Part shown: positions 1,556 through 58,187 of the stretch, in pieces
Layout: the number at the start of each line of letters is the position of its first letter
Position numbering within the stretch: the first letter of the stretch is position 1
Assembly (NCBI GenBank): GCA_017428385.1
Contig: JAFRQX010000036.1
Coordinates: forward strand, 7,325-71,324
Direction of reading: 5' to 3'
From: Clostridia bacterium
GTDB lineage: Bacteria; Bacillota; Clostridia; Christensenellales; Aristaeellaceae
Length of the DNA: 64,000 nucleotides
Notes under the pieces: model-generated
The model's input: only the letters and a program-made list of their open reading frames with translations
Told to the model about the DNA's origin: nothing
Database searches by the model: none
Program-made: the position numbers and the translations under genes

Positions 1556-2245
1556 TCAGTACTGACGGACCACATAGTTCTTCATGATGAAGCCGGTGGC
1601 TTCCGTGTTGGGATCCGCAACCTGGTACCAGCTCTGGGTTTCAGCAATGACAGTCAGCTGGGAGCCGGAACGGTAGGTTGCCAGCACTTCAGCATCCTTG
1701 CTGGGGGCCCAGCGCATGTTGACCCAGCCGCTGGCGCGGGAGGGACGAACCTGGACCACGAAGGGTGTGATCAGACGGGCGGTGCGGAATTCCTTGTTCA
1801 GCTCCGCCATGGTATCGGTATATGCGGGAAGAACATTCGGTCTTGCCGTAGGCGCAATTGTAGGAATGGCGGTGGGAATGGGCGTGGGCGTTACGACAAC
1901 CAGGGGAGCCGGCTCAAACCACTGCAGGAAACGGCTCTGGACGTAAGCTTCACCGATCTTATCCCACTTGATGCAGGCCCAGCCGTTATCCAGGAAGCGG
2001 ATAACGCTCAGCTTGGAACCGTAGGGAGCGAGGCCGATGATGTTTTCGCCGACATAGGGCGTACTCCGGACGTTCAGTCCCTGGCCGTTGTCCGTATAGA
2101 CATACATGGTCATGACGGATTGATCCAGATAAGTATAGCTGTTGGGGGAGGACGCGGCCGTACCGATGCCGGATTCAGCAACGGCGGCAGCAAGGCCCAG
2201 CAGCAGAGCCAGCGCAAGCACAAGAGACAGCAGCTTTCTGTTCAT
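1556..2245 (-). CDS. Secreted protein with two bacterial SH3 (SH3b) domains and a Pro/Thr linker
   Basis: Signal peptide; GLNVRSTP...IIG and WVNMRWAPS...GFIM SH3b-like motifs; PTPIPTAIPT linker. Confidence 0.8.
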   Translation of the reverse strand: MNRKLLSLVLALALLLGLAAAVAESGIGTAASSPNSYTYLDQSVMTMYVYTDNGQGLNVRSTPYVGENIIGLAPYGSKLSVIRFLDNGWACIKWDKIGEAYVQSRFLQWFEPAPLVVVTPTPIPTAIPTIAPTARPNVLPAYTDTMAELNKEFRTARLITPFVVQVRPSRASGWVNMRWAPSKDAEVLATYRSGSQLTVIAETQSWYQVADPNTEATGFIMKNYVVRQY

Positions 2246-4739: not shown

Positions 4740-5423
4740 TTAGTTGTTGCCCGGGTTGATGTAGATGACCTGGGGCGTGGCCTGCGGCGCGGCGGGGGCC
4801 GGTTCGGGCGTCACAAACACCAGGATCGGGGTGGGTGTCGGCTCCGCGGCGGGCTGCTGCATGATGTAGATCACCTGCGGGGTGGGAGCGGCTGCTTCCG
4901 GCGGGTTGATGATGTTGATCACATCGGAAGCCGACTCGGAAGCCGCGGCGGTGTGGGTGCTCACTTCCGCCTCGTAGGAATAGGGATCCTCATGCAGGAT
5001 CACATGATCCGTGTTGAGCAGATCGGAGCGGATGTAGCCCAGGGTGCCATTGGCCAGCTGGACAGCGTACCAGATTTCCCCGGAGCTGTTCTTGACCCGG
5101 GCGGTGACGGTGAATTCCGTGCCGGCAGATTTGATCCGCATGACCCGGGTAGCATGGATGCTGGGCTGCGAGCGGACATTGACCTGCTTGATGGCGGTAT
5201 AGCACCAGCCTTCCGCAGGCATGGACTCGATCATCGTTTCAGCCTGGCGGACCACCACGCGGGTTTTCGTAACCACCGGGGGATAAAGCTCCCACCAGGG
5301 ATAGTTTATACTGACCGGATCAGGTACGGTATAATCCTCCGAATCGGCAGAGGCAGGCAGGATGACCGCGGCTATTACCAGAACAGACAGGACAAGACAC
5401 AGCCGGAACAGGAAAGATTTCAT
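4740..5423 (-). CDS. Secreted SH3b-domain protein with Pro-rich tail
   Basis: Signal peptide; VNVRSQPS...WYAVQLANGTLGYIRSDLL SH3b motif. Confidence 0.8.
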   Translation of the reverse strand: MKSFLFRLCLVLSVLVIAAVILPASADSEDYTVPDPVSINYPWWELYPPVVTKTRVVVRQAETMIESMPAEGWCYTAIKQVNVRSQPSIHATRVMRIKSAGTEFTVTARVKNSSGEIWYAVQLANGTLGYIRSDLLNTDHVILHEDPYSYEAEVSTHTAAASESASDVINIINPPEAAAPTPQVIYIMQQPAAEPTPTPILVFVTPEPAPAAPQATPQVIYINPGNN

Positions 5424-23227: not shown

Positions 23228-24431
23228 TTGTTCCAGTCCTTTCTCCTGCTCCGGCGTATTCACCAATCAGCCGGAGGCACATTCTTCCGTTGTGGTACGG
23301 GCACTTCCACTCGTCCGCTTCGGGCTTGCCGAGGGAAATCCCGCTTTCATCCAGTTCGTTGAACCATTCGCCGCCGTTCCGGGGATCCACAAAGACCCTG
23401 CGGATATAGTCCCACTGCTGTTCCATCCGCTCCAGCCAGACTGGATCTCCCGTGAGCCGGAGGCCGAAGTCAAAGCCCAGCATGGTTTCCGCCTGGGGCC
23501 ACCAGGCCCGGTAGGTGCTGGCCTCACCGTTCACGCATTCATAGAGAAGCCCGCGGTCCGAGAGACCGCGTTCCGTGACGCTGCGCAGCAGCTCCAGACA
23601 CATGGCCCGGTAAGGGGCGCGATCTTCCGCCTTGAGGATCAGGGTTTCCGCAGCGTCCCAGAGCAGCCAGGAAGCTTCAATATCGTGGCCGTAGCTCTGC
23701 ATGTCCAGCAGGGGACGCCAGGCGGCGTCGAAAAACACCTCCAGGCGGCGCTTTACCGGATTCATGACCTGATTCAGGCATTGCCGGAGGCCGGCTTTGC
23801 CCGCAAGGCGGACCTGCTCATCCGGACGGGCACGGTACAGCTCCGCATAGGCTTCGATCACATGCAGGAGCGTGTTCATGGTCCGGGAGGCCAGCACGCC
23901 GTTCTCGCTCAGCTTTTCATTGCTTTCGGGCGTGAAGGCTGCCGTCTGCGCTTCCAGGTATCCGCCCGCGTCCCGGCATTTGGTTTCGATGACGCGAAAC
24001 AGGGAACGGGCCCTGTCCAGCGCGCCGGGATTGCCTGTGAGCCGGTAATAGGCCGCCAGTCCGTAAACGGCGAAGGCCTGACAGTAGGTATGCTTGGTGG
24101 TGTCCGCCGGCTTTCCGTCATAAGTGACAGACCAGAACAGGCCGCCGTTTTCCGGATCCCCGAAGCGGTCCAGGAAACGATAGGCATGATCCGCGTATAC
24201 CCGCAGGTCCGGCCGTTTCAGCACAGCGGCAGCCGTCGAAAAGAACCACAGGATACGGCTGTTCAGGATGCAGCCTTTGTCTGCTTCCCGGTTCAGCTGT
24301 AAATCACTGTCGACATATCCGTAATATCCGCCGTAAGTGTTGTCCAGCAAGGCTTCCCAGAACGGAAGGATTTTCTGTTCCAGGTGTTCGCAGACTTCGG
24401 ATATAAGCGCGGCCGGTTCTTTGTTAACCAT
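23142..24431 (-). CDS. Cellobiose 2-epimerase / mannobiose epimerase (AGE family)
   Basis: KGCILNSRILWFFS, TMNTLLHVIEAY, SYGHDIEASWLL, WKCPYHNGR catalytic His motifs. Confidence 0.93.
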   Translation of the reverse strand: MVNKEPAALISEVCEHLEQKILPFWEALLDNTYGGYYGYVDSDLQLNREADKGCILNSRILWFFSTAAAVLKRPDLRVYADHAYRFLDRFGDPENGGLFWSVTYDGKPADTTKHTYCQAFAVYGLAAYYRLTGNPGALDRARSLFRVIETKCRDAGGYLEAQTAAFTPESNEKLSENGVLASRTMNTLLHVIEAYAELYRARPDEQVRLAGKAGLRQCLNQVMNPVKRRLEVFFDAAWRPLLDMQSYGHDIEASWLLWDAAETLILKAEDRAPYRAMCLELLRSVTERGLSDRGLLYECVNGEASTYRAWWPQAETMLGFDFGLRLTGDPVWLERMEQQWDYIRRVFVDPRNGGEWFNELDESGISLGKPEADEWKCPYHNGRMCLRLIGEYAGAGERTGTIGSKESDDAGYRQSRGDQCGHGFQGAGG

Positions 24432-24478
24432 ACTGTTAACCTCACGATTCATTATAAGGAAAAGACGGCTTCTGTCAA
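24423..24478 (-). promoter_or_regulatory. Internal sigma-A promoter with overlapping GTTAAC-N6-GTTAAC operator
   Basis: TTGACA(24478-73)-16-TATAAT(24456-51); gttaac pair 24423-24440 over RBS/start. Confidence 0.75.
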
Positions 24479-26472: not shown

Positions 26473-27807
26473 TTACTTGACTTCAACGTTCAGGGCAGCC
26501 TGCGCGTCGCTCCAGGCGGCGTTCCAGTCAGCCATGATTTCGTCAAAGGTCTTGTCGTGGTTGAAAGCGTGCTCGATGATTTCCTGCACCTTGGTGTTGC
26601 CGCCGGCGTTGAAGTTCAGTTCAGACTCGGCGTTCATCTCGTTCAGCAGGGTTTCCTCTCCGGGCAGGGAATCCGCGTCGGACAGCATATCGATGCCGTC
26701 GAAAGCAGCGTACAGGTCCGGATATTCGCCGCTCTTATCGATCGGGACGCCGCCTTCGCTGTAGGCGAAGCCGCTTTCGTGGGTCAGCCACTTCAGGTAG
26801 TACATGGAAGCCAGCTTCTCTTCATAGGAAGCCTGGACGTTGATGGCAAAGTTGTAGTCGCCGCCGGCGGGAGCATACTGCTTTCCGTCGATGGAGATGG
26901 GGAACGCCATGTAGCCGACGTCTTCCGGATGCTCGCCGCCTTCAGCGTCACGCATCTGGGTGAAAGCCCAGGAACCCAGCACCATGGAAGCGATCTGGCC
27001 GTTGTTCAGCATCGGCTTGCAGCCTTCCCAGTCGGTGGTGGTGTAGTCGTCTTCGATCAGGCCTTCAGCAGTCGCGTCGTACAGGATCTTATACACGGCG
27101 TAGGGGCCGGTGCCGTTGCCCTGATCCGCGAAGGGATCCTTGGCATGGGCCAGTTCCTGGTTCATGTAGGTGTCCTTGCCGGTGGCGGCGACGCCGATGT
27201 AAGCGTCCCAGGCACCCATGGTCCAGCCGGCAGCATAGTTGGTGTACAGCGGGATGGCGTCGGTTTTTTCCTTGACAGCCTTCAGGGCGGCGATGAACTC
27301 ATCGGGGGTCTTGGGCAGCTCGGTCACGCCGGCTTCCGCGAAGATCCGCTTGTTGTACAGGACGCCGTTGGCATTGCCGGTGGAAGGAATACCGTAGCAG
27401 ATGCCGTCAAAGGACCAGGAGCTCATGAAGTTGTACAGGCCGCTCAGGGTCTCCAGGGAGCCCAGCGGAACGAAGTACTTGGACAGCTCGTCCTTCTGCA
27501 CGGTGGGGATGCCCATGATGGTCCAGTCGGTGTTGCCGACGCGCATGAGGGCGTTTTCAGCATAGTCTGTGATCAGTTCGTACTCGATCTCCACGTTGGG
27601 GTAGATCTGACGGAACGCTTCCACATAGCCGTTCAGCTTGTCCGCGATATCGGTGCGGTGATAGGCAAAGTGGATCTTGGCAGTCAGGTCGGTGTTTTCG
27701 CCCAGGACGATCTGATCGAAGGTGGGCAGGGTTTCTTCCGCGGAGGCGAAAGAGGCCAGGCCGAGCATCAGGCAAACAGCCAGGACCAGGGACAGAATTT
27801 TCTTCAT
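26473..27807 (-). CDS. Carbohydrate ABC transporter substrate-binding protein (manno-oligosaccharide by context)
   Basis: Signal peptide; family-1 SBP motifs (GVLYNKRIF, LPKTPDEF). Confidence 0.92.
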   Translation of the reverse strand: MKKILSLVLAVCLMLGLASFASAEETLPTFDQIVLGENTDLTAKIHFAYHRTDIADKLNGYVEAFRQIYPNVEIEYELITDYAENALMRVGNTDWTIMGIPTVQKDELSKYFVPLGSLETLSGLYNFMSSWSFDGICYGIPSTGNANGVLYNKRIFAEAGVTELPKTPDEFIAALKAVKEKTDAIPLYTNYAAGWTMGAWDAYIGVAATGKDTYMNQELAHAKDPFADQGNGTGPYAVYKILYDATAEGLIEDDYTTTDWEGCKPMLNNGQIASMVLGSWAFTQMRDAEGGEHPEDVGYMAFPISIDGKQYAPAGGDYNFAINVQASYEEKLASMYYLKWLTHESGFAYSEGGVPIDKSGEYPDLYAAFDGIDMLSDADSLPGEETLLNEMNAESELNFNAGGNTKVQEIIEHAFNHDKTFDEIMADWNAAWSDAQAALNVEVK

Positions 27808-27844
27808 TGGGTGGTTCCTCCTCTTTTTGATTAATGAGTTTGTT

Positions 27845-27903
27845 AGGTTAACAAGTTAACCTTTGCTGTTTACATATTAACCATACAATGAGAATTTTGT
27901 CAA
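27845..27903 (-). promoter_or_regulatory. Mannan operon promoter and palindromic operator
   Basis: TTGACA-17-TTAATA; 18-bp palindrome aggttaac-aa-gttaacct just downstream. Confidence 0.75.
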
Positions 27904-28124
27904 CGTCCAGAAAAACGTTATGATTCTTGTAAACTATGATTTGTAAGCTTTTTGAAGAAAACAGAAAAACCTTGCTGAACAACTTAAAACAAGTTAACAA
28001 AATAGTTAACAAAGTACATTTTCAGAGCAAAAAAATTTTTGAATTTTATCTAAAAACAGGAAAACGAAGCGGAAATATCGGAAGGAGATCCGGGACGAAG
28101 AGCGGCAAGGACGGGGGAAAGCCC

Positions 28125-28154
28125 TTGACACTGTCTGTTGTCCCGTAGTATAGT
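28125..28154 (+). promoter_or_regulatory. Sigma-A-like promoter of the esterase/GNAT operon leader
   Basis: TTGACA-18-TATAGT. Confidence 0.6.
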
Positions 28155-28187
28155 CAATCCAATCTGAAAGAAAGGAATGCTCTACTG

Positions 28188-28307
28188 ATGCAGCGTAACG
28201 GATCCAAATACAGTGAATCTATTATGATCTCCGCGAATGGCATGATGCAGATTCGCATTATTTCCGTATACGGTCATACAGTCAGAGAAGAGCAGTCCGG
28301 CATATAA
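28188..28307 (+). CDS. Leader peptide MQRNGSKYSESIMISANGMMQIRIISVYGHTVREEQSGI (39 aa; true start could be a downstream Met)
   Basis: AAAGGA 11 nt upstream; stop 14 nt before terminator; 3' codons complementary to terminator 5' arm and loop. Confidence 0.55.
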   Translation: MQRNGSKYSESIMISANGMMQIRIISVYGHTVREEQSGI

Positions 28308-28321
28308 ACCAGGATTTATCC

Positions 28322-28355
28322 AGCCGCTTATCTCTGACAGATAAGCGGCTTTTTT
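28322..28355 (+). terminator. Leader (attenuator) terminator
   Basis: 12-bp perfect stem agccgcttatct/agataagcggct plus T-run, 39 nt before the esterase start. Confidence 0.88.
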
Positions 28356-28393
28356 GATACCCAAAGGCGGGATCAGAAACACGGGAGGGAAAA

Positions 28394-29311
28394 ATGATAA
28401 ACAGTCTGAAAAGATGCTGTGCCGTTCTGGCAGCGGTTCTGCTGGCAACAGCGGCGCCGGCTTTTGCGGAAGAAAAGACTGTGCGGACAGAAAGCTGGAG
28501 AATGGAAAACCGCAATGAGGTTTTTGCCTGGATTCCGGAGGGGCTTCCGGCAGAACCGGTTCCCATGGTGCTGGCGATGAACTGTACAAACGGCAATCCG
28601 CAGGCGGAAGTGAAAACCAACGGCTGGGACGTGCTGTGCGCGGAGGAGGGCTTCATTGTCATTGCGCCGGAATACAGGGACAGTGCATCCTATGAAGAAA
28701 CAGATTATCTCCGCATGGTGATTGAACAGGCGGTCAGCCGGTATCCGGTGGATCCGTCCAGGGTTTACGCCACGGGCTTTTCCAATGGCGGAGCGGCGGC
28801 GATTGCGCTGGCTTCGGAATATCCGGAACTGATCGCCGGGATTTCAGCGGCCGGGTGGCTGGTGGAAGTGAAAAACACGGAGGGGCTGCTGACGCCCTTC
28901 CAGGTGCTGAAGGGAACGGAAGAATTCACCGTCCGGAACGGGCAGGGCGATATGGAACTGATGGAAGATGAAAAGAACGCCCTGCGGACCCTGTTTGAAA
29001 TGAACCGAATGCCTTCGGGCGAAACAGATTATCACGCGGTGCCTTACTGGGGGTACAGGCCGGACCGGCAGGAAAGTATCTGGCCGGAATACAAGGACTA
29101 TCATTATTACGGCGGAAGCGGTATTCCGCAGAGCAACGTGGAGTGGCAGATCAGCGATTACTGCCTGGAAGGCTATGAAGCGCCTTTTGCCCAGCTGGTA
29201 CTGATTGAAGGCGCGGATCATACGCCGCATGATTATCATGCCAGGATTGCGTGGGATTTCTTCTCCCGCTTCAGCCGGAACACAGACGGAACGATAACTG
29301 AAAGGAAATAA
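28394..29311 (+). CDS. Secreted PHB-depolymerase/LpqC-family esterase
   Basis: Signal peptide; VYATGFSNGG nucleophile; GADHTPH. Confidence 0.85.
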   Translation: MINSLKRCCAVLAAVLLATAAPAFAEEKTVRTESWRMENRNEVFAWIPEGLPAEPVPMVLAMNCTNGNPQAEVKTNGWDVLCAEEGFIVIAPEYRDSASYEETDYLRMVIEQAVSRYPVDPSRVYATGFSNGGAAAIALASEYPELIAGISAAGWLVEVKNTEGLLTPFQVLKGTEEFTVRNGQGDMELMEDEKNALRTLFEMNRMPSGETDYHAVPYWGYRPDRQESIWPEYKDYHYYGGSGIPQSNVEWQISDYCLEGYEAPFAQLVLIEGADHTPHDYHARIAWDFFSRFSRNTDGTITERK

Positions 29312-29317
29312 AGAATA

Positions 29318-30790
29318 ATGATTATCAGAAAATTTACAGAGCAGGATGCGCAGGCCGTGTCCGAACTGATTATTACCACGATCCGGATTTCCAATACGAA
29401 GGATTATCCGGTGGAGCTGATGGAAGAACTGGTGAAGACGGAAACACCGGAGCATGTGCTGCAGCGGGCCTCCTGGACGCACTTCTATGTGGCGGAGGAA
29501 GCCGGGAAGATTATCGGCTGCGGCGCGATCGGCCCTTACTGGGGCAAAGAAGATGAAAGCAGCCTGTTCACGATCTTTGTGCACCCGGAATGGCAGGGCA
29601 AGGGAATCGGCCGGGCCATCGTGGAAACCCTGGAAAAGGATGAGTACGGCATACGGGCAAACCGGATCGAGATTCCGGCCTCCATTACCGGGCTGCCGTT
29701 CTACCGGAAGCTGGGATACGGCTTCAAGGACGGAAAGGATACCGTTGACGAGGAACACCTTTACCGGCTGGAAAAGCAGATTGAGGCTCCGGTCATCCGT
29801 CAGGTGGAGGATGCGGAGGAAAAATCCCGCATTTGCCGGGAGATCCTGGAAGCCCTGCCGGAGTGGTTTGAGGTTCCGGAATCCCGGGAACAGTATATCC
29901 GGGAATGCAGGAAATGGTTCTTTGCAGCGGCGGAACGGAATGGCAGGGCGGTGGGCTTCCTGTGCCTGAAGGAAACGGGAAAGGCTACCGTTGAACTGGC
30001 AGTGACCGGCGTACTGAAGGCGCTTCACCGCCGGGGAACCGGCCGGGCGCTGTTTGAAGCGGCAAAGGCATACGCGGTTGCCGCAGGATATGAATTCATG
30101 CAGGTCAAGACGGTGGCGGAGGGCCTCTATGAAGACTATGACCGGACCAACCGGTTCTACCAGGGGCTGGGCTTCCGGGAACTGGAAGTGATTCCGCAGG
30201 TATGGGATGAGGACAACCCCTGCCAGATCTATGTGATGTCCCTGAGGAAATCCCCGTGGGAGCAGATCATGACCCGCCGGAGCTACCGGGGCAAATACAA
30301 ACCGGACAGGATTCCGCGGGAAGACCTGAAGACGATCCTGGAGGCGGGGCTGGCGGCACCCTCCGGCTGCAACAAACAGACCACCAGCCTGGTGGCGGTG
30401 GACGATCCGGAGATCCTGAAGCAGATCAACGCGGTGATTGATCCGCCGGTCTGCGAGACGGCACCGGCCATGATCTGCGTCCTGTCCCAGCGGATTAACG
30501 CGTTCCGGGACCGGTGCTTTGCGACGCAGGACTATTCCGCGGCCATTGAAAACATGCTGCTGACGATTTCCTCCATTGGATACGGGAGCTGCTGGTTTGA
30601 AGGACATATTACAGATGAGGACCGGATCTGCGACCGGATCGCGGAAATCCTGAATGTGCCGGAGGGATACGACCTGGTCTGCATCCTGCCGGTCGGAAAA
30701 ATGGAAAGCGAACCGACTGTACCGAAGAAAAAGCCCTTTGCCGAACGGGCCTGGTTCAACGGATTCGGCAAAACGGAAGAAACGGAGTAA
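29318..30790 (+). CDS. Three-domain fusion GNAT-GNAT-nitroreductase
   Basis: Two acetyl-CoA motifs (VHPEWQGKGIG; LHRRGTGRAL), then TRRSYRGKY...AAPSGCNKQ nitroreductase. Confidence 0.9.
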   Translation: MIIRKFTEQDAQAVSELIITTIRISNTKDYPVELMEELVKTETPEHVLQRASWTHFYVAEEAGKIIGCGAIGPYWGKEDESSLFTIFVHPEWQGKGIGRAIVETLEKDEYGIRANRIEIPASITGLPFYRKLGYGFKDGKDTVDEEHLYRLEKQIEAPVIRQVEDAEEKSRICREILEALPEWFEVPESREQYIRECRKWFFAAAERNGRAVGFLCLKETGKATVELAVTGVLKALHRRGTGRALFEAAKAYAVAAGYEFMQVKTVAEGLYEDYDRTNRFYQGLGFRELEVIPQVWDEDNPCQIYVMSLRKSPWEQIMTRRSYRGKYKPDRIPREDLKTILEAGLAAPSGCNKQTTSLVAVDDPEILKQINAVIDPPVCETAPAMICVLSQRINAFRDRCFATQDYSAAIENMLLTISSIGYGSCWFEGHITDEDRICDRIAEILNVPEGYDLVCILPVGKMESEPTVPKKKPFAERAWFNGFGKTEETE

Positions 30791-30798
30791 TAAAGCCA

Positions 30799-31614
30799 AT
30801 GGATGCTTTTGTGAATGAGAAGGATTTCGAACTGCTGGCGAGAGATCGGTGTACCTTCCAGGTACTGGACAGGATCCTGAGGCAAGAATGTGAGCTGATC
30901 CGGACAGATCATGAACGCCTGATCCTGTGCCATTCCGCATCGCGCTATCCGGTCTGGATCTGGACGCCGGACGGCCTGACGGAGGCGGAGAAGGAAGCAG
31001 CCTGGAAACTGGCATCTGAGTTCCACCTGGTGGAAGAGGGCTTCGAGATCATCATGAAATACGAGCTGGCGGAATACTTCATGGCCCGCGCGGAAAAGGA
31101 GGGCATGAAGATGGGCTGCCAGATGGAGATGATGGCCTATGATTGCCCGGAACCCAAGGCGCCGGAATTTCCGGCGGACGGGGAACTGTACGAATGCACG
31201 CCGGAAGATACGGACGAGGTTGTGAAATTCCTGAGCGGATTCTTTATGGATTTAGACGGGGAACTGCCGCCGGATGAACGTATCCTGGCCAAAGCACAGG
31301 AATACATCGGCAACCAGGCGTTTTTCCAGTGGAAGACGGCGGAGGGCACGCCGGTTGCCTGCTGCTATTACAGGCCGAACCAGGATATGGCCTCCATCGG
31401 CGGCGTATGGACCGTACCGGAATACCGCAGGAAGCATTACGCGCAGCACATGGTGTATGCCGTGACAAAAAAGATCGCCGGCATGGGGTATCTGCCCATG
31501 CTGTATACGGACGCCAATTACGCGGCGTCCAATGCCTGCTATCAGAAGATCGGCTACACCCTGCGGGGCAGGCTGTGCACGATTAAACGCATGGAAGAAA
31601 AAAAGATGATATAA
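30799..31614 (+). CDS. GNAT acetyltransferase (C-terminal FR47-like domain)
   Basis: VWTVPEYRRKHYA; NAASNACYQKIGY-type motif B. Confidence 0.88.
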   Translation: MDAFVNEKDFELLARDRCTFQVLDRILRQECELIRTDHERLILCHSASRYPVWIWTPDGLTEAEKEAAWKLASEFHLVEEGFEIIMKYELAEYFMARAEKEGMKMGCQMEMMAYDCPEPKAPEFPADGELYECTPEDTDEVVKFLSGFFMDLDGELPPDERILAKAQEYIGNQAFFQWKTAEGTPVACCYYRPNQDMASIGGVWTVPEYRRKHYAQHMVYAVTKKIAGMGYLPMLYTDANYAASNACYQKIGYTLRGRLCTIKRMEEKKMI

Positions 31615-31630
31615 TCACGGAGGCAAAAAG

Positions 31631-32101
31631 ATGTTTTATGATACAGAGGATCTGCAGGACGGTGCAATCCGGCTGCAGCTGGAAAGAACCGCAGAGGGGT
31701 ATCCGGAGAAAGGCTGGGTGCCGGCTTACTACTTCGGAATCTGCCTTCCGGACGGAACGCGGATCGGGCAGTGCGACCTGCGGATCGGCCACAATGACCG
31801 GCTCTACATCGGCGGGAACATCGGCTATGGGATCGATGAAGCCTACCGGGGACACCATTACGCGGCAAAAGCCTGCGGGCTGCTGTTCCGGCAGGCCCGG
31901 AAGCATGATCTGGGGTATGTGATTATTACCTGCGATCCGACCAACACCGCTTCCTCGAGAACCTGCGAGCTGGCGGGCGGAGAGTATCTGGAAACGGCGG
32001 ATATTCCGGAAGACCACGATATGTATGAAAGGGGACTGCACCAGGTTATGGTTTACCGCTTTGACCTGGACTGCGGGGAAAACGAAGATGGAACGAACTG
32101 A
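31631..32101 (+). CDS. GNAT acetyltransferase
   Basis: GNIGYGIDEAYRGHHYA; NTASSRTCELAGG. Confidence 0.88.
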   Translation: MFYDTEDLQDGAIRLQLERTAEGYPEKGWVPAYYFGICLPDGTRIGQCDLRIGHNDRLYIGGNIGYGIDEAYRGHHYAAKACGLLFRQARKHDLGYVIITCDPTNTASSRTCELAGGEYLETADIPEDHDMYERGLHQVMVYRFDLDCGENEDGTN

Positions 32102-32537
32102 ACGGGTGATCCTGACCAACCTGTGTATGATCCAGGACGGCACAAAGGTGCTGGTACAGGAAAAGGTGGGCAAGGATGCCGGCGGGATTATTTTCCCCGG
32201 CGGCCATGTGGAGGAACATGAACCCATCGTGGACTCGGTGATCCGGGAAATGAAGGAAGAAACCGGACTGACGATTGAAAAGCCGCAGTTATGCGGCATC
32301 AAGGAATGGGTCAACGAGGACGGTACCCGGTACGTTGTCTTCCTGTTCAAGACCGACCGCTTTTCCGGGAAACTGACCTCCTCTGACGAAGGACGGGTGT
32401 TCTGGCTGGAGAAGGACGATGTGCTGAAGAGCAACTGGATCTGGCAGATGGACTGCCTGCTGAAGATCATGGCGGACGGGGAATATACGGAACTGTTTTT
32501 TGACCCGGCGGATGACTGGAAGCCGGTTCTCAAATAA
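32088..32537 (+). CDS. Nudix hydrolase (8-oxo-dGTP diphosphatase-like)
   Basis: PGGHVEEHEPIVDSVIREMKEETGL Nudix box; ATG 32088. Confidence 0.92.
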   Translation: MERTERVILTNLCMIQDGTKVLVQEKVGKDAGGIIFPGGHVEEHEPIVDSVIREMKEETGLTIEKPQLCGIKEWVNEDGTRYVVFLFKTDRFSGKLTSSDEGRVFWLEKDDVLKSNWIWQMDCLLKIMADGEYTELFFDPADDWKPVLK

Positions 32538-32554
32538 TACCGGAGGAAACAGAA

Positions 32555-33007
32555 ATGAGCATTTCCTACAGAAAACTGACAGAAAACGACCTGGAGACCT
32601 TCATCCGGATGCGGATTACGCAGCTCCGGGAGGAAGGCGCAACGGAGGACGTGGACCTGGTGCCGCCGCTGATGGATTACTATCACCGGCACCTGGCGGA
32701 CGGAACCTATGTGTCCTGGCTGGCACTGGACGGGGAGAAGATCGTCGGCACCAGCGGAATGTCCTTTGTGGAAAAGCCGCCGTACTTCAGCTGTCCCTCC
32801 GGGCGGATCGGCCTTTTGTCCAGCATGTACACCGATCCTGAATACCGGCGTATGGGCATCGCGAAGGAGCTGCTCCGGCGGGTAACGGAAGAAGCCCGGG
32901 CATACGGCTGCGGATGCGTGCAGATTACCGCCTCCGACATGGGCGTGCTGCTGTACACGGACTTCGGATTTAAGAAAAACGGAAACTTTATGCAATATAA
33001 CCTGTAA
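32555..33007 (+). CDS. GNAT acetyltransferase
   Basis: MYTDPEYRRMGIA; GVLLYTDFGF. Confidence 0.9.
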   Translation: MSISYRKLTENDLETFIRMRITQLREEGATEDVDLVPPLMDYYHRHLADGTYVSWLALDGEKIVGTSGMSFVEKPPYFSCPSGRIGLLSSMYTDPEYRRMGIAKELLRRVTEEARAYGCGCVQITASDMGVLLYTDFGFKKNGNFMQYNL

Positions 33008-33020
33008 GGAGGACCAGGAC

Positions 33021-33782
33021 ATGATCACCGAGTCTTTTGATAACCTTTCCCAGGCAATCATCAATCCGGTACGGAAGGAGAACGCCCCGGCGGTGGACGC
33101 CTGCATCGTGACGTTCTCCCATGAGATAGAGAAATATGTGGCGGAGAACTACGCCTCCGGGGAGATCACTTCCCTCTGGTGCGCCACAGGAAGGACGCCG
33201 GTTTACCTGATCGAGAAAAACGGCAAGCGGTTTGCCTTCTACAAAACCTATGTGGGCGCGCCGATCACCGTCGGCCTGATGGAGGACGCCGCGGCGGAGA
33301 TGGCCTGCGACAGGTTCATCCTCTTCGGCGGGGCAGGCTGCCTGAACAAGGAAATCGCCCACGGCAAGGTGATGGTCCCCACCGCTGCCTACCGGGATGA
33401 GGGTACGTCCTATCACTACGCCCCGGCGGCGGACTACGTGACCGTGGGAAAATCTGATACGGTGGCGGAATTCATGAAAACGAACGGTATTCCTTATGTG
33501 CTGGGGAAAACCTGGACTACGGATTCCTTTTACCGGGAGACGCGGAACAACTTTGAGAAGCGGAAGGCGGACGGCTGCATCTCCGTGGAGATGGAGTGCG
33601 CCGGCGCACAGGCGATGTGCGACTTCCGGGGACTGGAACTGTATCCCTTCTTCACAAGCGGCGACCTGCTGGACGCGCCGGAATGGGACGACCGGGGCAA
33701 GGATTACAAGGACGGCGGCCAGCATGACGTGGGCCACTTCAGCATCGCCCTGGCCCTGGCGGACTATATTTCACAAAAATAA
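33021..33782 (+). CDS. Nucleoside phosphorylase (PNP/UDP family)
   Basis: VGAP, FGGAG, RDEGTSYHY, WTTDSFYRET, VEMECA motifs. Confidence 0.9.
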   Translation: MITESFDNLSQAIINPVRKENAPAVDACIVTFSHEIEKYVAENYASGEITSLWCATGRTPVYLIEKNGKRFAFYKTYVGAPITVGLMEDAAAEMACDRFILFGGAGCLNKEIAHGKVMVPTAAYRDEGTSYHYAPAADYVTVGKSDTVAEFMKTNGIPYVLGKTWTTDSFYRETRNNFEKRKADGCISVEMECAGAQAMCDFRGLELYPFFTSGDLLDAPEWDDRGKDYKDGGQHDVGHFSIALALADYISQK

Positions 33783-33793
33783 TTTCCGCAGGG

Positions 33794-33822
33794 TGTAACA
33801 TTTACCGCTTTTCATTCGTAAT
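33794..33822 (+). promoter_or_regulatory. ECF-type promoter
   Basis: TGTAAC-N17-CGTAAT upstream of sigma gene. Confidence 0.6.
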
Positions 33823-33839
33823 ATCAGTGAAGAAGGCAG

Positions 33840-34379
33840 GTGGAAGGGATGACCGGGGAGCAGGAACTGGTAAGACTGCTGAAGACCGGCAGCGCGGACG
33901 CGTTTGAACAGATGATCACACGCTGTCGTGCCGGAGCAGAAGCCTATGCCTGCAGCCTCCTCCATGATTCCCAGGCCGCCGAAGACGCCGTACAGGAAGC
34001 TTTCTCCAGACTCTATGCCGTCCGGACAGACATCGATGAAAACCGTTCCTTCTCCGCTTATCTGTACACGATCGTAAAACGAATCTGTATAGACGAGCTG
34101 CGGAAAAAGAAACGGTTCCCGGATCTTCCGGGAGAGCTGCCCGATCCGCCGGTTCCCTCGGCGGAAGCGGAATACATCAGCCACTGGGACCGGCTGAACC
34201 GGATCCACATGCTGGCTGAACTGGATGAGACGGACAGGAGACTGCTGACAGCTTTCTCACTGGAAGGGAAGACCACGAAAGAGATCGCCGGGGAAATGAA
34301 CATGACCGACGGTCAGGTGCGGGTCCGGCTGCACAGGATCCGCAGAAGAATCAGGAAAGGAATGAAAGACGATGCGTGA
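33840..34379 (+). CDS. ECF RNA polymerase sigma factor
   Basis: AEDAVQEAF, FSAYLYTIVKR, region 4 TKEIA...VRVRLHRIR. Confidence 0.92.
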   Translation: MEGMTGEQELVRLLKTGSADAFEQMITRCRAGAEAYACSLLHDSQAAEDAVQEAFSRLYAVRTDIDENRSFSAYLYTIVKRICIDELRKKKRFPDLPGELPDPPVPSAEAEYISHWDRLNRIHMLAELDETDRRLLTAFSLEGKTTKEIAGEMNMTDGQVRVRLHRIRRRIRKGMKDDA

Positions 34380-34557
34380 TGAGTATCTGAACCAGATCAT
34401 CCGGCGCGGAAACGAACTGGCAGTGCTGGAACATGCCGCACTGTCTTATCCGAAAAACACCTCAGTAATCCGTTGGGCGGTGGCTGCCGCCTTCGGGATG
34501 CTGGTGACCTTTCTTCCTTCCGTCTGTACAGCACACGCCTTCTTCCAGATGATGTGA
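34372..34557 (+). CDS. 61-aa single-TM protein, putative mini anti-sigma factor
   Basis: Overlaps sigma stop; hydrophobic C-half ending in AHA-FFQMM. Confidence 0.6.
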   Translation: MRDEYLNQIIRRGNELAVLEHAALSYPKNTSVIRWAVAAAFGMLVTFLPSVCTAHAFFQMM

Positions 34558-34573
34558 AAGGCGGAAACCATCC

Positions 34574-35209
34574 ATGGAAGAAAAGCATAACAATAACGAA
34601 AAAAAGCAGGTAAAAAAGAAATCCCTGGCACGGGAAATCCTGGAATGGGTGCTGACCATTGTGCTGGCTGTCGTGATTGCACTGCCGATCCGGGCTTTTG
34701 CGTTTGAGATGGTCCGGGTGGACGGGGAATCCATGAACAGCACCCTGGCCAACGGGGAAATCATGTTTGTGTCCAAGTTTGACTACGCGACCACCTGGCT
34801 TTCCTTCCCGTGGCAGGATGACAGGAGCAAGGAGCAGGCAACACGCATCACCACCGGCGGCAATCCCCAGCGGTTTGACGTGGTGGTATGCCGGTATCCG
34901 GGACGGGGCGACACCAACTTTGTGAAGCGGGTGGTAGGCCTGCCGGGAGATACGGTGGAGGTTCGGGAAGGCTACCTGTACGTGAACGGCGAGAAGTTTG
35001 ACGAGCCGTATATCAAGGACGAATACCGGACCGGCCGGCTGAACAGCTTCGGCCCGTACGAGGTTCCGGAAGGCGAATACTTTGTAATGGGCGATCACCG
35101 GAACAACTCCAACGACAGCCGCATGCAGGGATCCCTGCCGCGAAACATGATCATCGGGCACGTGCGCACCGTGCTGTATCCCTTCGGCGAAATCCGGGGA
35201 ATAGAATAA
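34574..35209 (+). CDS. lepB: Signal peptidase I
   Basis: VDGESMNSTL (Ser), FVKRVVGLPGD (Lys), MGDHRNNSNDSR boxes. Confidence 0.95.
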   Translation: MEEKHNNNEKKQVKKKSLAREILEWVLTIVLAVVIALPIRAFAFEMVRVDGESMNSTLANGEIMFVSKFDYATTWLSFPWQDDRSKEQATRITTGGNPQRFDVVVCRYPGRGDTNFVKRVVGLPGDTVEVREGYLYVNGEKFDEPYIKDEYRTGRLNSFGPYEVPEGEYFVMGDHRNNSNDSRMQGSLPRNMIIGHVRTVLYPFGEIRGIE

Positions 35210-35245
35210 AAAAAGGGCATCGCTTTGAGGCGATGCCACTTTTTT
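35209..35245. terminator. Bidirectional terminator
   Basis: ggcatcgc/gcgatgcc stem with A and T tails between convergent genes. Confidence 0.75.
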
Positions 35246-35249
35246 AAAT

Positions 35250-35328
35250 TAATACTGAAAACTTAAAACTTAAAACCTAAAAATGGTGGAACAAACTGCT
35301 TCCGGAAGGAAGCAGTTTTCAGTATTTA
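35250..35328. repeat. Short mosaic repeat (AAAACTT heptamers plus aaactgcttc..gaagcagtttt hairpin)
   Basis: Near-identical to 15908-15980. Confidence 0.8.
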
Positions 35329-35329
35329 A

Positions 35330-35860
35330 TCAGAAGAATTTAACGGTTTCTTCCAGGGGCTTCCGGGGCGGCGTGGCGGGAGCGGCGTCGCTCTTGCCGA
35401 CGGCGATGACGGAGATCAGCTCCTCGTTTTCCGGAATGCCGAGTTTGTCCCGGAGCAGTTCCACGTCCCGCAGGCCCATGATCAGGGTATCATAGCCCAG
35501 GTCCTTGGCCGCGAGGATCAGGTAGGCGTCATGCAGGCCCAGGTCATAAATGCCCCAGCCGTTGCCGATATCATCCACGGGCTGGCCGTCCGGGCCGAAA
35601 CCGACGATGCCTTTGACGAAGGTGGTGACGATGAGGGCCGCGTTGGCGGAGCTTTTTTTGTTAAAACCGGGAAGGGCGGCATCCCGCAGGGTTTCCAGAA
35701 CCTCCGGTGTTTCCAGCACGTAGCAGCGGGCAGTCTGCTGGTTCATCCAGGAGGGAGCCTGCTGGGCAGCTTTGCAGATGGCTTCCAGGTCTTTGTGGCA
35801 GGCGCCGGACTGATAGCTCCGGACGCTGCGGCGGGCGGCGATCAGGTCTTTGAATTCCAT
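35330..35860 (-). CDS. Nitroreductase family protein
   Basis: ARRSVRSY, QAPSWMNQQ, LGYDTLIMG, RKPLEE. Confidence 0.92.
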   Translation of the reverse strand: MEFKDLIAARRSVRSYQSGACHKDLEAICKAAQQAPSWMNQQTARCYVLETPEVLETLRDAALPGFNKKSSANAALIVTTFVKGIVGFGPDGQPVDDIGNGWGIYDLGLHDAYLILAAKDLGYDTLIMGLRDVELLRDKLGIPENEELISVIAVGKSDAAPATPPRKPLEETVKFF

Positions 35861-35936
35861 GAAAATATCCTCCTTTATGAATATGATTTATCTGATTTCC
35901 TGAACAGGATTGACAAACAAGGTTTATCAGAAACGG

Positions 35937-37244
35937 TTACCGGCAGGCTTTCCGCACTGCTTCCCGGACGGCTTCCAGGGGAAGGTTGAGCTCCTTCGCC
36001 AGGGCGGCGATCTCCTCATACTCAGCCTTGACTCGTTCGGCGCCCATGCCGGAGGCCCGCTTAAGCCGGACGGGACCGTATTCCGTGGAGACGGTTTCCT
36101 CATGGCGGTCCAGTACATACCGGCTCATGTCCTGGCGGCGGATGCCCAGGGTGGTGGTGTGCTTCATCATAACTTCCGCCAGTTTGTCCGCGTCCTGCGC
36201 CAGGCAGATAACCGACAGCAGGATGCCCGGGCGGCTCTTCTTCATGCCGATGGGCTGGGTGTAGACGTCCCGGGCGCCGGCGGCGAAAAGCTGCTCCATG
36301 GCAAAGGCGATATCCTCGCCGGTCATGTCATCCAGGTTGCACTCGAGGCGGGTGATGGTTTCCAGCTCTCCTTCGCTTTGGCCCAGGAATGCACGGATAC
36401 AGTTGGCCTGTTCAAAATCCTTTTTGCCCATGCCGTAGCCGATGGCTTCCACAGCCATGACGGGGCGGTCGCCGAAACGGGAGACAAAGTGCTTCAGCAG
36501 GGCGGCGCCTGTGGGCGTGCAGAGCTCGCCCCTGATTTCTCCGCCATAGGAGGGAATGCCCTCCAGGATCAGCGCGGTGGCCGGGGCGGGAACGGGCAGG
36601 ATGCCGTGGGCGCAGTGGACATGGCCGCTGCCGGTATGAACAGGAGAAGCAATAACCTGATCCGGGAAAAGCTGTTCCATCAGCAGGCATACGCCCACCA
36701 CGTCCGCCACCGCGTCCAGGGTACCCACCTCATGGAAATGGATCTCCGTGACCGGACGGCCGTGAACCCGGCTTTCCGCATTGGCAATCAGGGCATACAC
36801 AGCCTTGGCGTCGGCCTTGACCCGGTCGGACACATCCAGGCCGTTGATCAGCGCTTCAATATCCGCCACGGAGGCATGGTGATGATGCCCGTGGTCATGA
36901 TCGTGGTGATGATCATGTTCTTCTTCATGGTGATCATGGTCATGCTCGTGATGATGATCATGATCATGGTGGTGATGCTCATGGTCATGATCATGGTGCT
37001 CGTGATCATGATGGTGGTCATGGGCGTCTCCGGCTTCTTCCTCCACGCCGTCCACGGTAACCTTCACATGCGTTCCGGTGATACCGCACTTGACCGATCC
37101 TTCAGCGGCAACCGTAACGCCGGGCAGGCCAATGACGTTCATTTTGTCAATGAAAGCCTGGCGGTCGCCGGTCAGCTCCAGCAGGGCCGCGGTCAGCATA
37201 TCCCCGGCAGCGCCCATGGCGCATTCCAGATACAGTGTCTTCAT
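35937..37244 (-). CDS. larC: Nickel pincer cofactor biosynthesis protein LarC (nickel insertase)
   Basis: CAMGAAGDM, IHFHEVGTLD, CAHGILPVPAPAT, ELCTPTGAA, ECNLDDMTGE; long His-rich insert. Confidence 0.95.
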   Translation of the reverse strand: MKTLYLECAMGAAGDMLTAALLELTGDRQAFIDKMNVIGLPGVTVAAEGSVKCGITGTHVKVTVDGVEEEAGDAHDHHHDHEHHDHDHEHHHHDHDHHHEHDHDHHEEEHDHHHDHDHGHHHHASVADIEALINGLDVSDRVKADAKAVYALIANAESRVHGRPVTEIHFHEVGTLDAVADVVGVCLLMEQLFPDQVIASPVHTGSGHVHCAHGILPVPAPATALILEGIPSYGGEIRGELCTPTGAALLKHFVSRFGDRPVMAVEAIGYGMGKKDFEQANCIRAFLGQSEGELETITRLECNLDDMTGEDIAFAMEQLFAAGARDVYTQPIGMKKSRPGILLSVICLAQDADKLAEVMMKHTTTLGIRRQDMSRYVLDRHEETVSTEYGPVRLKRASGMGAERVKAEYEEIAALAKELNLPLEAVREAVRKACR

Positions 37245-57761: not shown

Positions 57762-58086
57762 GGAGCATAGGGGAGTCGATTCCGTTCGCTCAATGGTCGT
57801 TCAAGTCCCTTGGAGCGGGAGATGTGTGCCCGGGGAGTCGAACCCCGTCTCGCTGCGCTGCGCTTGCTCGGTCAGGTTCGCAATAGTCGTCCGCCTTCTC
57901 TGCCGTTCGGCAGACTCCTTTGCTCACCAGGCTTCCACATCGCTTTCGCCTGCGGCGAGCAGCCCACTGGGCTGCCGCTCTGTTCCGCCCCTCTCCAATG
58001 CTTCGCGTTGTCGAGACAGGGGTCGACTTCCCCTTGCACACATAAACGAAAATCACCACCCATGAAGGGTGGTGATTTTGTTTTGT
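57762..58086. mobile_element. tRNA-derived non-autonomous mini-element bounded by an 18-bp duplication of the tRNA-Ala 3' end
   Basis: ggagcataggggagtcga at 57762-57779 and 58087-58104; internal T-arm copies at 57832-57846 and inverted at about 58000-58042. Confidence 0.6.
58049..58079. terminator. Strong bidirectional terminator downstream of tRNA
   Basis: aaaatcaccaccc-atgaa-gggtggtgatttt. Confidence 0.9.
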
Positions 58087-58141
58087 GGAGCATAGGGGAG
58101 TCGAACCCCTGACCTCGACAATGCGAATGTCGCGCGCTACC
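58086..58141 (-). pseudogene. tRNA-Ala(CGC) 3' portion with non-canonical 5' end (att-like junction)
   Basis: Intact anticodon arm CGACA-TTCGCAT-TGTCG, T-arm AGGGG-TTCGACT-CCCCT and 3' acceptor strand ATGCTCC-A. Expected GGGGCAT/D-stem 5' part absent. Confidence 0.8.
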
Positions 58142-58187
58142 GGGTATGCTTAAACTCACCACAAGCTCCTCAAGCTCTGTGAGCCTT

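Follow-up and report, generated by a model that had tools for sequence, protein, structure and literature searches.

A conserved leader of ruminant-gut Clostridia with the layout of a ribosome-mediated transcription attenuator

Leader-peptide attenuators are known as a kind, and few families of them have been defined outside model organisms. In the erm and cat systems, and in the ARE-ABCF attenuators vmlR and lmo0919, a ribosome that a drug has stalled on a leader ORF changes the fold of the RNA, and a resistance enzyme is induced; intrinsic terminators are part of the ABCF leaders. Among the products of the Escherichia coli operon topAI-yjhQP, which is preceded by the toiL uORF, are a GNAT (YjhQ) and a methyltransferase (YjhP). 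The bmrB (yheJ) leader of Bacillus subtilis bmrCD was characterized as a ribosome-mediated transcription attenuator; its leader ORF, which must be translated, is combined with an intrinsic terminator and three alternative stem-loops, and antibiotics targeting protein synthesis act as inducers (Reilman et al. 2014, PMC4191407). The toiL uORF senses ribosomes stalled at the start or early codons, a stalling caused by several drug classes, and frees the downstream RBS, so that Rho-dependent termination is prevented (Baniulyte & Wade 2025, PMC12121999).

We analyzed a window of 64,000 nucleotides, the whole stretch of DNA under study, whose source is an uncultured ruminant-gut bacterium of the Clostridia. 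In this window, a leader precedes a seven-gene operon that starts with a secreted esterase (Table 1). The closest match in logic is bmrB, which also belongs to Firmicutes and also joins a short leader ORF to alternative stem-loops and an intrinsic terminator. However, bmrB is single-copy, controls an ABC transporter, has its terminator inside the ORF and shows no sequence similarity to the present leader, which has the terminator 14-24 nt past its stop codon, occurs in several copies per genome and would control modifying enzymes. The toiL uORF is a functional analogue, although it is very short, proteobacterial, single-copy, unrelated in sequence and devoid of an intrinsic terminator or antiterminator. 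With the trp, his, leu and pheA attenuators of Proteobacteria, the leader shares a four-segment logic (anti-antiterminator, antiterminator and terminator) in which the ribosome's place on the ORF is read out. Those attenuators have runs of regulatory codons and biosynthetic operons, whereas the leader has neither: no tandem run of one regulatory codon was found in about 105 peptide variants, and the genes behind are not biosynthetic. Lacking such a run, it does not belong to the classical amino-acid attenuators. The erm and cat leaders mostly unmask the RBS of the resistance gene, whereas the SD of the esterase is not sequestered in a leader hairpin. Moreover, erm, cat and ABCF leaders work with specific arrest peptides or very short uORFs, in contrast to the 31-40 codons without peptide-level selection found here.

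The leader does present a short ORF with its own SD and start codon behind the only promoter of the operon, and an intrinsic terminator between this ORF and the first gene with no promoter after it. In all 21 members folded, a predicted antiterminator helix is mutually exclusive with the terminator; the 5' strand of a predicted anti-antiterminator lies where a ribosome at the start codon would cover it, except in the subgroup formed by L035, L049 and L054. Judging from its sequence, the leader would best be called a new, widespread ribosome-mediated transcription attenuator of the bmrB, trp and toiL type, and we consider it likely that read-through by RNA polymerase is set by the position of the ribosome.

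Table 1. Coordinates of the leader and operon features in the window
Feature	Coordinates	Strand	Remarks
Sigma-70-type promoter, TTGACA / 18-nt spacer / TATAGT	28125-28154	+	11/12 consensus matches
uORF Shine-Dalgarno, AGAAAGGAA	28169-28177	+	ends 10 nt before the AUG
Segment A: SD-AUG spacer and start codon, predicted 5' strand of the anti-antiterminator	28174-28190	+	pairs with 28286-28298
Long imperfect hairpin P1: base helix A:B, middle helix, apical helix	28174-28298	+	folding and covariation
MLY mini-ORF, ATG CTC TAC TGA	28177-28188	+	sequence reading
Leader ORF, MQRNGSKYSESIMISANGMMQIRIISVYGHTVREEQSGI	28188-28307	+	39 codons, then stop; ORF scan; annotated as a gene on public contigs
Segment B, GUCAGAGAAGAGC: predicted switch strand near the 3' end of the uORF	28281-28293	+	near-invariant block
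Intrinsic terminator	28322-28355	+	perfect 12-bp stem 28322-28350, 5-nt CUGAC loop, U6
Segment C, GCUUAUCUCUGAC: terminator 5' arm and loop, predicted 3' strand of the antiterminator	28326-28338	+	invariant in all copies
Segment D: 3' arm of the terminator	28339-28350	+	
Seven-gene operon	28394-33782	+	intergenic gaps of 17 nt or less
Operon gene 1: secreted alpha/beta esterase, PHB-depolymerase-like	ATG 28394	+	signal peptide
Operon genes 2-4: GNAT-GNAT-nitroreductase fusion, GNAT, GNAT		+	
Operon genes 5-7: Nudix, GNAT, PNP_UDP_1 phosphorylase		+	

The original prediction, made on this DNA from its letters, had placed a promoter, a 39-codon uORF and a 12-bp terminator in the leader, and all three were found in place. 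The promoter is the top-scoring site of a scan of 9.5 kb (27000-36500), and transcription of the leader probably starts near 28160. An esterase promoter downstream of the terminator, which the prediction had named as evidence against itself, was looked for, and the scan returned no second promoter-like site on the + strand in 28155-28393, before the esterase start codon. The terminator is the strongest of the terminator scan, and its exact sequence is expected 0.00 times in shuffles of the window. As predicted, GTCAGAGA (28281-28288) is exactly complementary to TCTCTGAC (28331-28338), and the imperfect extension of this pairing, between 28281-28293 and 28326-28338, covers 13 nt at 85%. A search of the window with an nhmmer leader profile gave this single copy and no second one. 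The SD of the esterase (28383-28389) is found 28 nt past the terminator, and folding of 28300-28420 leaves it unpaired. Since there is no other promoter and this SD is free, control must run through read-through of the terminator, and would be transcriptional rather than exerted by masking of the RBS. The MLY mini-ORF had also been pointed out; it is present but not conserved, being absent from the wider family. We regard it as a chance feature, because its ATG is ACG in L020 and L034.

We then considered the leader in related genomes. Contigs carrying esterase orthologues (77-87% identity) all have a 39- or 40-codon ORF about 88 nt upstream. In these relatives the leader is 94-96% identical, versus 84-86% for the esterase CDS and about 51% for the upstream spacer; by these values selection on the leader is strong, and the gene behind it is less conserved. 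Among these relatives, the ORF has two indels of 3 nt apiece. An esterase-based scan of genome contigs gave no relative. Searching species-representative genomes with the exact terminator pattern gave 23 loci, in rumen or gut MAGs; these carry the labels Christensenellales, Oscillospiraceae, Eubacteriales or Clostridia, and two or three leader copies occur in several of them. Metagenome contigs were scanned with a loose pattern (AGAAG, a gap, CTTATCTCTGAC) whose matches were mostly chance; real members among the matches listed are L055, L094, L103 and L130. The search for the leader peptide upstream of GNAT genes in other Clostridia, which the original prediction had proposed, thus brought at least 32 distinct DNA copies (31 leaders and L103) in MAGs and metagenomes of ruminant-gut Clostridia, and a profile search of a protein database gave about 105 peptide clusters at 90% identity, all unnamed or “hypothetical” in the source databases. 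Conservation counts below refer to the 31 aligned leaders, L103 being an additional copy. In L024 and L025-L027 the same leader stands in front of different genes, so that it forms a portable module. The literature search found no paper in which it is described.

Nearly all loci share one plan, with a TTGAC(A/T) ... TAGTATAGT promoter, an SD, an AUG and a 31-40-codon ORF, one example of the encoded peptides being MNRFEFVAVLPANTVEHVRTIVVSDCRKFREE. Both promoter hexamers are kept in all family members and their flanks diverge. The SD reads GGAAAGGAG in most members, and its AAAGG is invariant across the 31 aligned leaders. Conserved nucleotide blocks recur across the loci (GCGAAC, GUCCGC, GUAUCCG and UCAGAGAAGAG); the first three would also suit a ligand- or protein-binding RNA. 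In the shared plan, a spacer of about 25 nt separates the stop codon from the invariant terminator, which stands between the leader ORF and the first gene in every member. Contigs assembled from RNA runs pile up on the terminator only (depth 68 versus about 7); many different flanks join the terminator in them, and the downstream flanks end in an RBS and an ATG. The contig breaks and depth spike at 28320-28354 were considered as transcript ends and rejected, being explained by repetition of the terminator across loci. For the same reason, these contigs are silent on termination.

Several features indicate that the uORF is probably translated. The start codon is AUG in 30 of the 31 leaders and GUG in the remaining one. 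Between the start codon and the UCAGAGAAGAG block, no stop interrupts frame 0 in 31/31 leaders, whereas frame +1 is open in 1/31 and frame +2 in 8/31. The distance from AUG to GCGAAC is 11, 12, 13, 14 or 15 whole codons among the aligned leaders, and AGAGAAG follows GCGAAC at 17-18 codons; every one of the five or more independent length changes counted in the leader ORF is a multiple of three. The stop codon comes 0-5 codons past the UCAGAGAAGAG block, directly in most members and after 2-5 codons in the others. Exceptions to the frame are L039, which is shifted ahead of block B, L053 and a few peptides that continue into the terminator, and clusters P0165-P0175, which read block B in another frame.

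The peptide itself shows another pattern. Within subfamilies, variable sites at codon positions 1:2:3 are in the ratio 26:18:33, and among the varying codons 44 have an amino-acid change versus 12 with synonymous changes only, which is close to the neutral expectation. The hydrophobicity and physico-chemical character of the peptide vary across clusters. Where residues look conserved, the codons are frozen: GCG is the only codon for Ala and GAA the only one for Glu, and AGA, AGG or GGA stands at the Arg position. The reading frame therefore appears to matter and the amino-acid sequence mostly not; by these counts the leader peptide is without peptide-level selection, and its conservation comes from constraints on the RNA. 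The “IRIISV..EEQ” motif on which the original prediction had drawn is a trace of RNA constraint: its GCG, GAA and AGA codons are frozen, changes are at the neutral level, and the block is read in a different frame by one subfamily. An arrest peptide or a functional small protein was rejected as the role of this peptide for want of peptide-level selection, and no arrest motif is recognisable in it.

The 201-nt leader has a minimum free energy of -64.6 kcal/mol, compared with -44.6 +/- 3.9 for shuffled sequences (z = -5.1). In this fold, nearly the whole uORF lies inside one hairpin (28174-28298), followed by the terminator. The base of the hairpin pairs the SD-AUG region with the GAGAAGAGC block and would act as an anti-antiterminator, and the apical helix joins GCGAAU (28233-28238) to AUUCGC (28251-28256). 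The anti-antiterminator, an essential third element, had not been part of the original prediction. In single-sequence folds of most members, GCUCUUCUC.AUG pairs with CAGAGAAGAG(U) at the hairpin base, and compensating A:B changes are seen in L032 (CCC/GGG), in L048 and L103 (GCGCUUCU/AGAAGCGU), in L045 (CCCUUC/GAAGGG) and in L053 (CUCCU/AGGAG). A good A:B helix is absent from the L035/L049/L054 subgroup.

RNAalifold on a MAFFT alignment recovered the apical helix and the terminator only; it missed the other helices because helix registers shift between subfamilies. For this reason, covariation was assessed by permutation: the duplex between the 5' and 3' segments of one leader was compared with duplexes that pair segments of different leaders. 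The base helix A:B had a cognate energy of -14.2 kcal/mol versus -12.0 kcal/mol for non-cognate pairs (p < 5e-5). The middle helix (p = 6.5e-4) and the apical helix (p = 4.7e-3) also covaried, and a negative control with an unrelated segment pair gave p = 0.99. On a fixed-column alignment, 87.9% of cells were paired, versus at most 48% with slid partners; the terminator stem was paired in 98.7% of cells and the A:B helix in 75%. Double-sided changes were modest (21 cells, a number reached in 22/500 shuffles). The A:B helix and the upper helices of the hairpin are thus supported by covariation in these comparisons. For the inner stem of the antiterminator, p was about 0.05-0.1; this helix is without covariation support because B and C are both invariant.

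Taken together, these elements suggest how the leader would switch. Transcription would start at the promoter in front of the leader. With no ribosome on the RNA, the A:B base of the hairpin and the C:D terminator would form, transcription would stop at 28355 and the operon would be off. A ribosome at the end of the uORF would sit on B or between B and C, again leaving the terminator to form and the operon off. In the window, where the stop codon lies four codons past the block, the terminating ribosome would stand between B and C and keep them apart, its edge being about 3-5 nt before the terminator stem. A ribosome held at the start codon or on the first few codons would cover A and leave B free; B would then pair with C before D is made, and RNA polymerase would read into the esterase-GNAT-Nudix operon. 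We infer that the terminator works and that the position of the ribosome decides the outcome.

This scheme was examined by folding transcripts cut just before the 3' arm of the terminator (segment D). With a 29-nt footprint on AUG to codon 5, B:C (10-14 pairs) was predicted in 21/21 members, and with a footprint on the end of the uORF in 0/21; for the transcript of the window cut before the 3' arm, 10-12 B:C pairs were predicted. These folds agree with the earlier proposal that a ribosome near the uORF stop blocks the pairing and that one stalled earlier allows it. A footprint at codons 10-20 freed B in only part of the family. In truncated RNA without a mask, B:C was already preferred in about half of the members, including the window, so the off state without a ribosome needs A:B to be formed first. 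Even with A masked, folds of the full-length leader favour the terminator at equilibrium, which means that the model needs kinetic, co-transcriptional control. Kinetically controlled attenuators commonly show such a preference. When ribosome masks were applied to equilibrium folds of the full leader, the terminator almost always persisted; these folds were set aside as a test, the decision being co-transcriptional. Several classes of antibiotics arrest ribosomes at or near the start codon, and in these folds the geometry favours ribosomes arrested there. Our preferred guess, which is speculative, is that the signal is general translation stress, for example antibiotics that arrest initiating or early-elongating ribosomes. 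The translation-sensing control of the downstream operon, as first put forward, is supported by the comparison of leaders, and those of its sequence-level predictions that could be tested held.

The genes behind the family leaders are varied. First genes encode several GNAT types, three kinds of class I SAM methyltransferase, a HAD hydrolase, a 2H phosphoesterase, a type I phosphodiesterase or an esterase, and many of the downstream enzymes are RimL/MccE-like Acetyltransf_3 GNATs. A copy reduced to the terminator lies in front of an S66 (MccF-family) peptidase. No downstream enzyme reaches a curated NCBIfam cutoff; weak matches to Erm, BlmB/TlmB, ArsN and ileS_w_GNAT fall below it and were not taken as evidence of function.

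Other readings of the leader have to be weighed against ribosome-mediated attenuation. The hairpin, with its conserved GCGAAC/GUCCGC apical helix and its GUAUCCG block, could bind a metabolite or a dedicated antiterminator protein and thereby stabilize or disrupt A:B, the ORF being incidental or secondary. A riboswitch or protein-binding leader of this kind would fit the frozen codon choice, the invariant nucleotide blocks, the peptide devoid of purifying selection and the several copies per genome, which form a regulon as for one shared factor or ligand. B and C, which are invariant and do not covary, suggest an extra sequence-specific constraint. However, structure alone leaves the SD and AUG, the frame open in 31/31 leaders, the whole-codon indels and the stop just after B unexplained. 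Aptamers typically have a multi-helix junction, whereas the hairpin is a simple imperfect stem. Covariance models of Rfam 15 gave nothing in the leader region at gathering score, and even at E up to 10 no family was matched other than on the terminator alone (trpB motif, 25.7 bits for a threshold of 59; BcKCsr2, 19.1 for a threshold of 40). A likeness of the UCAGAGAAGAG block to PyrR, TRAP or T-box elements was rejected for lack of Rfam support and because the downstream genes are unrelated. Beside the leader copies, whose neighbourhoods differ, no conserved candidate gene for an RNA-binding regulator was found. Binding of a ligand or protein as the primary switch is, on balance, unlikely.

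Sensing of an amino acid is a less probable explanation still. Stalling at the invariant Asn codon or in the Ile/Val-rich stretch would turn the operon on, and the cause could be starvation or an inhibitor of an aminoacyl-tRNA synthetase that the GNATs detoxify. The 1:2 / 2:3 / 3:4 scheme is the same as in the trp attenuator, and the Ala-Asn and Val-Arg codons are near-invariant. The class of RimL/MccE-like GNATs, so frequent behind the leader, includes enzymes that acetylate aminoacyl-nucleotide antibiotics, and the terminator-only copy before the MccF-family peptidase points the same way. Nevertheless, the invariant codons lie in the apical helix and are already explained by RNA pairing, a footprint at codons 10-20 frees B only in some members, and the codon run and biosynthetic genes of such attenuators are missing, as noted above. 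An independent small gene, producing a 32-40-aa peptide or a trans-acting, terminated sRNA, with the downstream genes expressed by leaky read-through, seems very improbable. The unit is indeed complete from promoter and SD to ORF and terminator, its ORF is picked up by gene callers, and some peptide variants are hydrophobic (e.g., MKYGYLALALLLANTLKLVRAILLC). Yet the character of the peptide is not conserved and its amino-acid changes are at the neutral expectation; the unit is always directed into a close gene without a promoter of its own, and the conserved B:C pairing would be without a role.

Under ribosome-mediated attenuation, the leader could have a broader meaning. It is almost always attached to small-molecule-modifying enzymes without an assigned substrate, in Clostridia of the ruminant gut, and ruminants are animals routinely given ribosome-targeting drugs. 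It is conceivable, if doubtful, that one regulon of many genes and leader copies in uncultured rumen Christensenellales/Oscillospirales shares the leader as its sensor, through which stalled ribosomes switch on uncharacterised drug-modifying enzymes. Stalling would be caused by feed or natural antibiotics or by inhibitors of aminoacyl-tRNA synthetases, and the battery of enzymes would comprise GNATs, SAM methyltransferases, esterases, the nitroreductase fusion, HAD enzymes, 2H phosphoesterases and a nucleotide pyrophosphatase. If so, this would be an inducible, largely unannotated resistome, and new genes for resistance or detoxification could be found by using the leader as a sequence tag. 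On the same reading, the invariant B and C sequences could also be recognized by a shared trans-acting factor. If translation stress is what is sensed, dozens of candidate inducible antibiotic-modifying or detoxifying genes would be marked, by a compact and portable stress-responsive switch of about 200 nt. In annotations, the 31-40-aa “genes” ought to carry the label of leader peptides, and the element belongs in libraries of RNA and cis-regulatory elements.

Behind the seven genes, an ECF sigma factor, a 61-aa ORF and a signal peptidase may also belong to the operon, which would then end at the terminator at 35216-35237. On the upstream side of the leader, a divergent operon encodes a sugar ABC transporter, a GlcNAc 2-epimerase and a LacI-type regulator.

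In peptide clusters P0165-P0175, which belong to the leader-peptide clusters retrieved by the protein-database profile search, the C-terminus reads ...LLCQYRDKGRVIR in place of ...LLCRHREIREE. Judged from the peptides, this ending would fit translation of the conserved GGGAAGAG block, near the 3' end of the uORF, in a different frame. If this reading is true, the use of an alternate frame would mean that conservation of the GGGAAGAG block acts on the RNA rather than on the peptide. A further stretch conserved in the leaders of the family, CAAUCUUUUU, precedes the uORF start by some 10-25 nt (approximately 28160-28177 in the window). It is able to pair with GAAAGG in the Shine-Dalgarno sequence of that same uORF, and many minimum free energy (MFE) folds show the resulting small 5' hairpin; in the window copy this pairing is weak. 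The predicted hairpin may add a further layer restricting initiation at the uORF.

Incomplete copies of the leader element were found in two contigs, L037 and L050. Contig L037 carries a full leader in front of a truncated methyltransferase ORF of 98 aa, together with a second copy, in front of an intact methyltransferase gene, that retains just the 3'-terminal 65 nt comprising spacer and terminator. In L050, an S66 LD-carboxypeptidase (MccF-family) gene is preceded by the terminator alone. Such arrangements suggest that the module has undergone duplication and decay. Identical 199-nt leaders, each followed by a methyltransferase gene, were also observed in three loci (L033, L040 and L044), so that one leader and methyltransferase sequence is shared by MAGs labelled as Eubacteriales, Clostridiales SIG364 and Flexilinea (Chloroflexota). 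The shared cassette is due either to an error in binning or to horizontal transfer in the recent past.

Downstream from the operon, across a 66-nt gap, are genes encoding an ECF sigma factor, a 61-aa ORF and a type I signal peptidase (33849-35237), which could be either part of the leader-controlled transcript or separate from it. The 61-aa ORF overlaps the sigma factor gene, has no match in Pfam and is a possible anti-sigma factor. At the gathering threshold, Rfam gave no match in the whole window other than one tRNA gene.

Coordinates of element copies (contig positions) and of other features (window positions)
Feature	Position	Strand	Remark
L037 element copies	720-784 and 4827-5025		
L050 element copy	1887-1933		
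GTTAAC half-site pair GTTAACCATACTGTTAAC	24423-24440		
GTTAAC half-site pair GGTTAACAAGTTAACC	27846-27861		Near-perfect 16-bp palindrome
GTTAAC half-site pair GTTAACAAAATAGTTAAC	27993-28010		
Bidirectional terminator	35216-35237		Closes ECF sigma factor/61-aa ORF/signal peptidase group
tRNA gene	58086-58158	-	Rfam, 38.6 bits

On the upstream side, a single contig assembled from RNA run X25 fuses position 27880 directly to 28125, omitting the 244-nt AT-rich region that directly precedes the leader promoter, which shows that there is a strain variant lacking this spacer. Paired GTTAAC half-sites occur at three places within and around the divergent sugar ABC/GlcNAc-2-epimerase/LacI-type operon, and the related loci L025-L027 have conserved sites of this kind ahead of the leader. 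These pairs are probably operators for the LacI-family regulator, separate from the attenuator.
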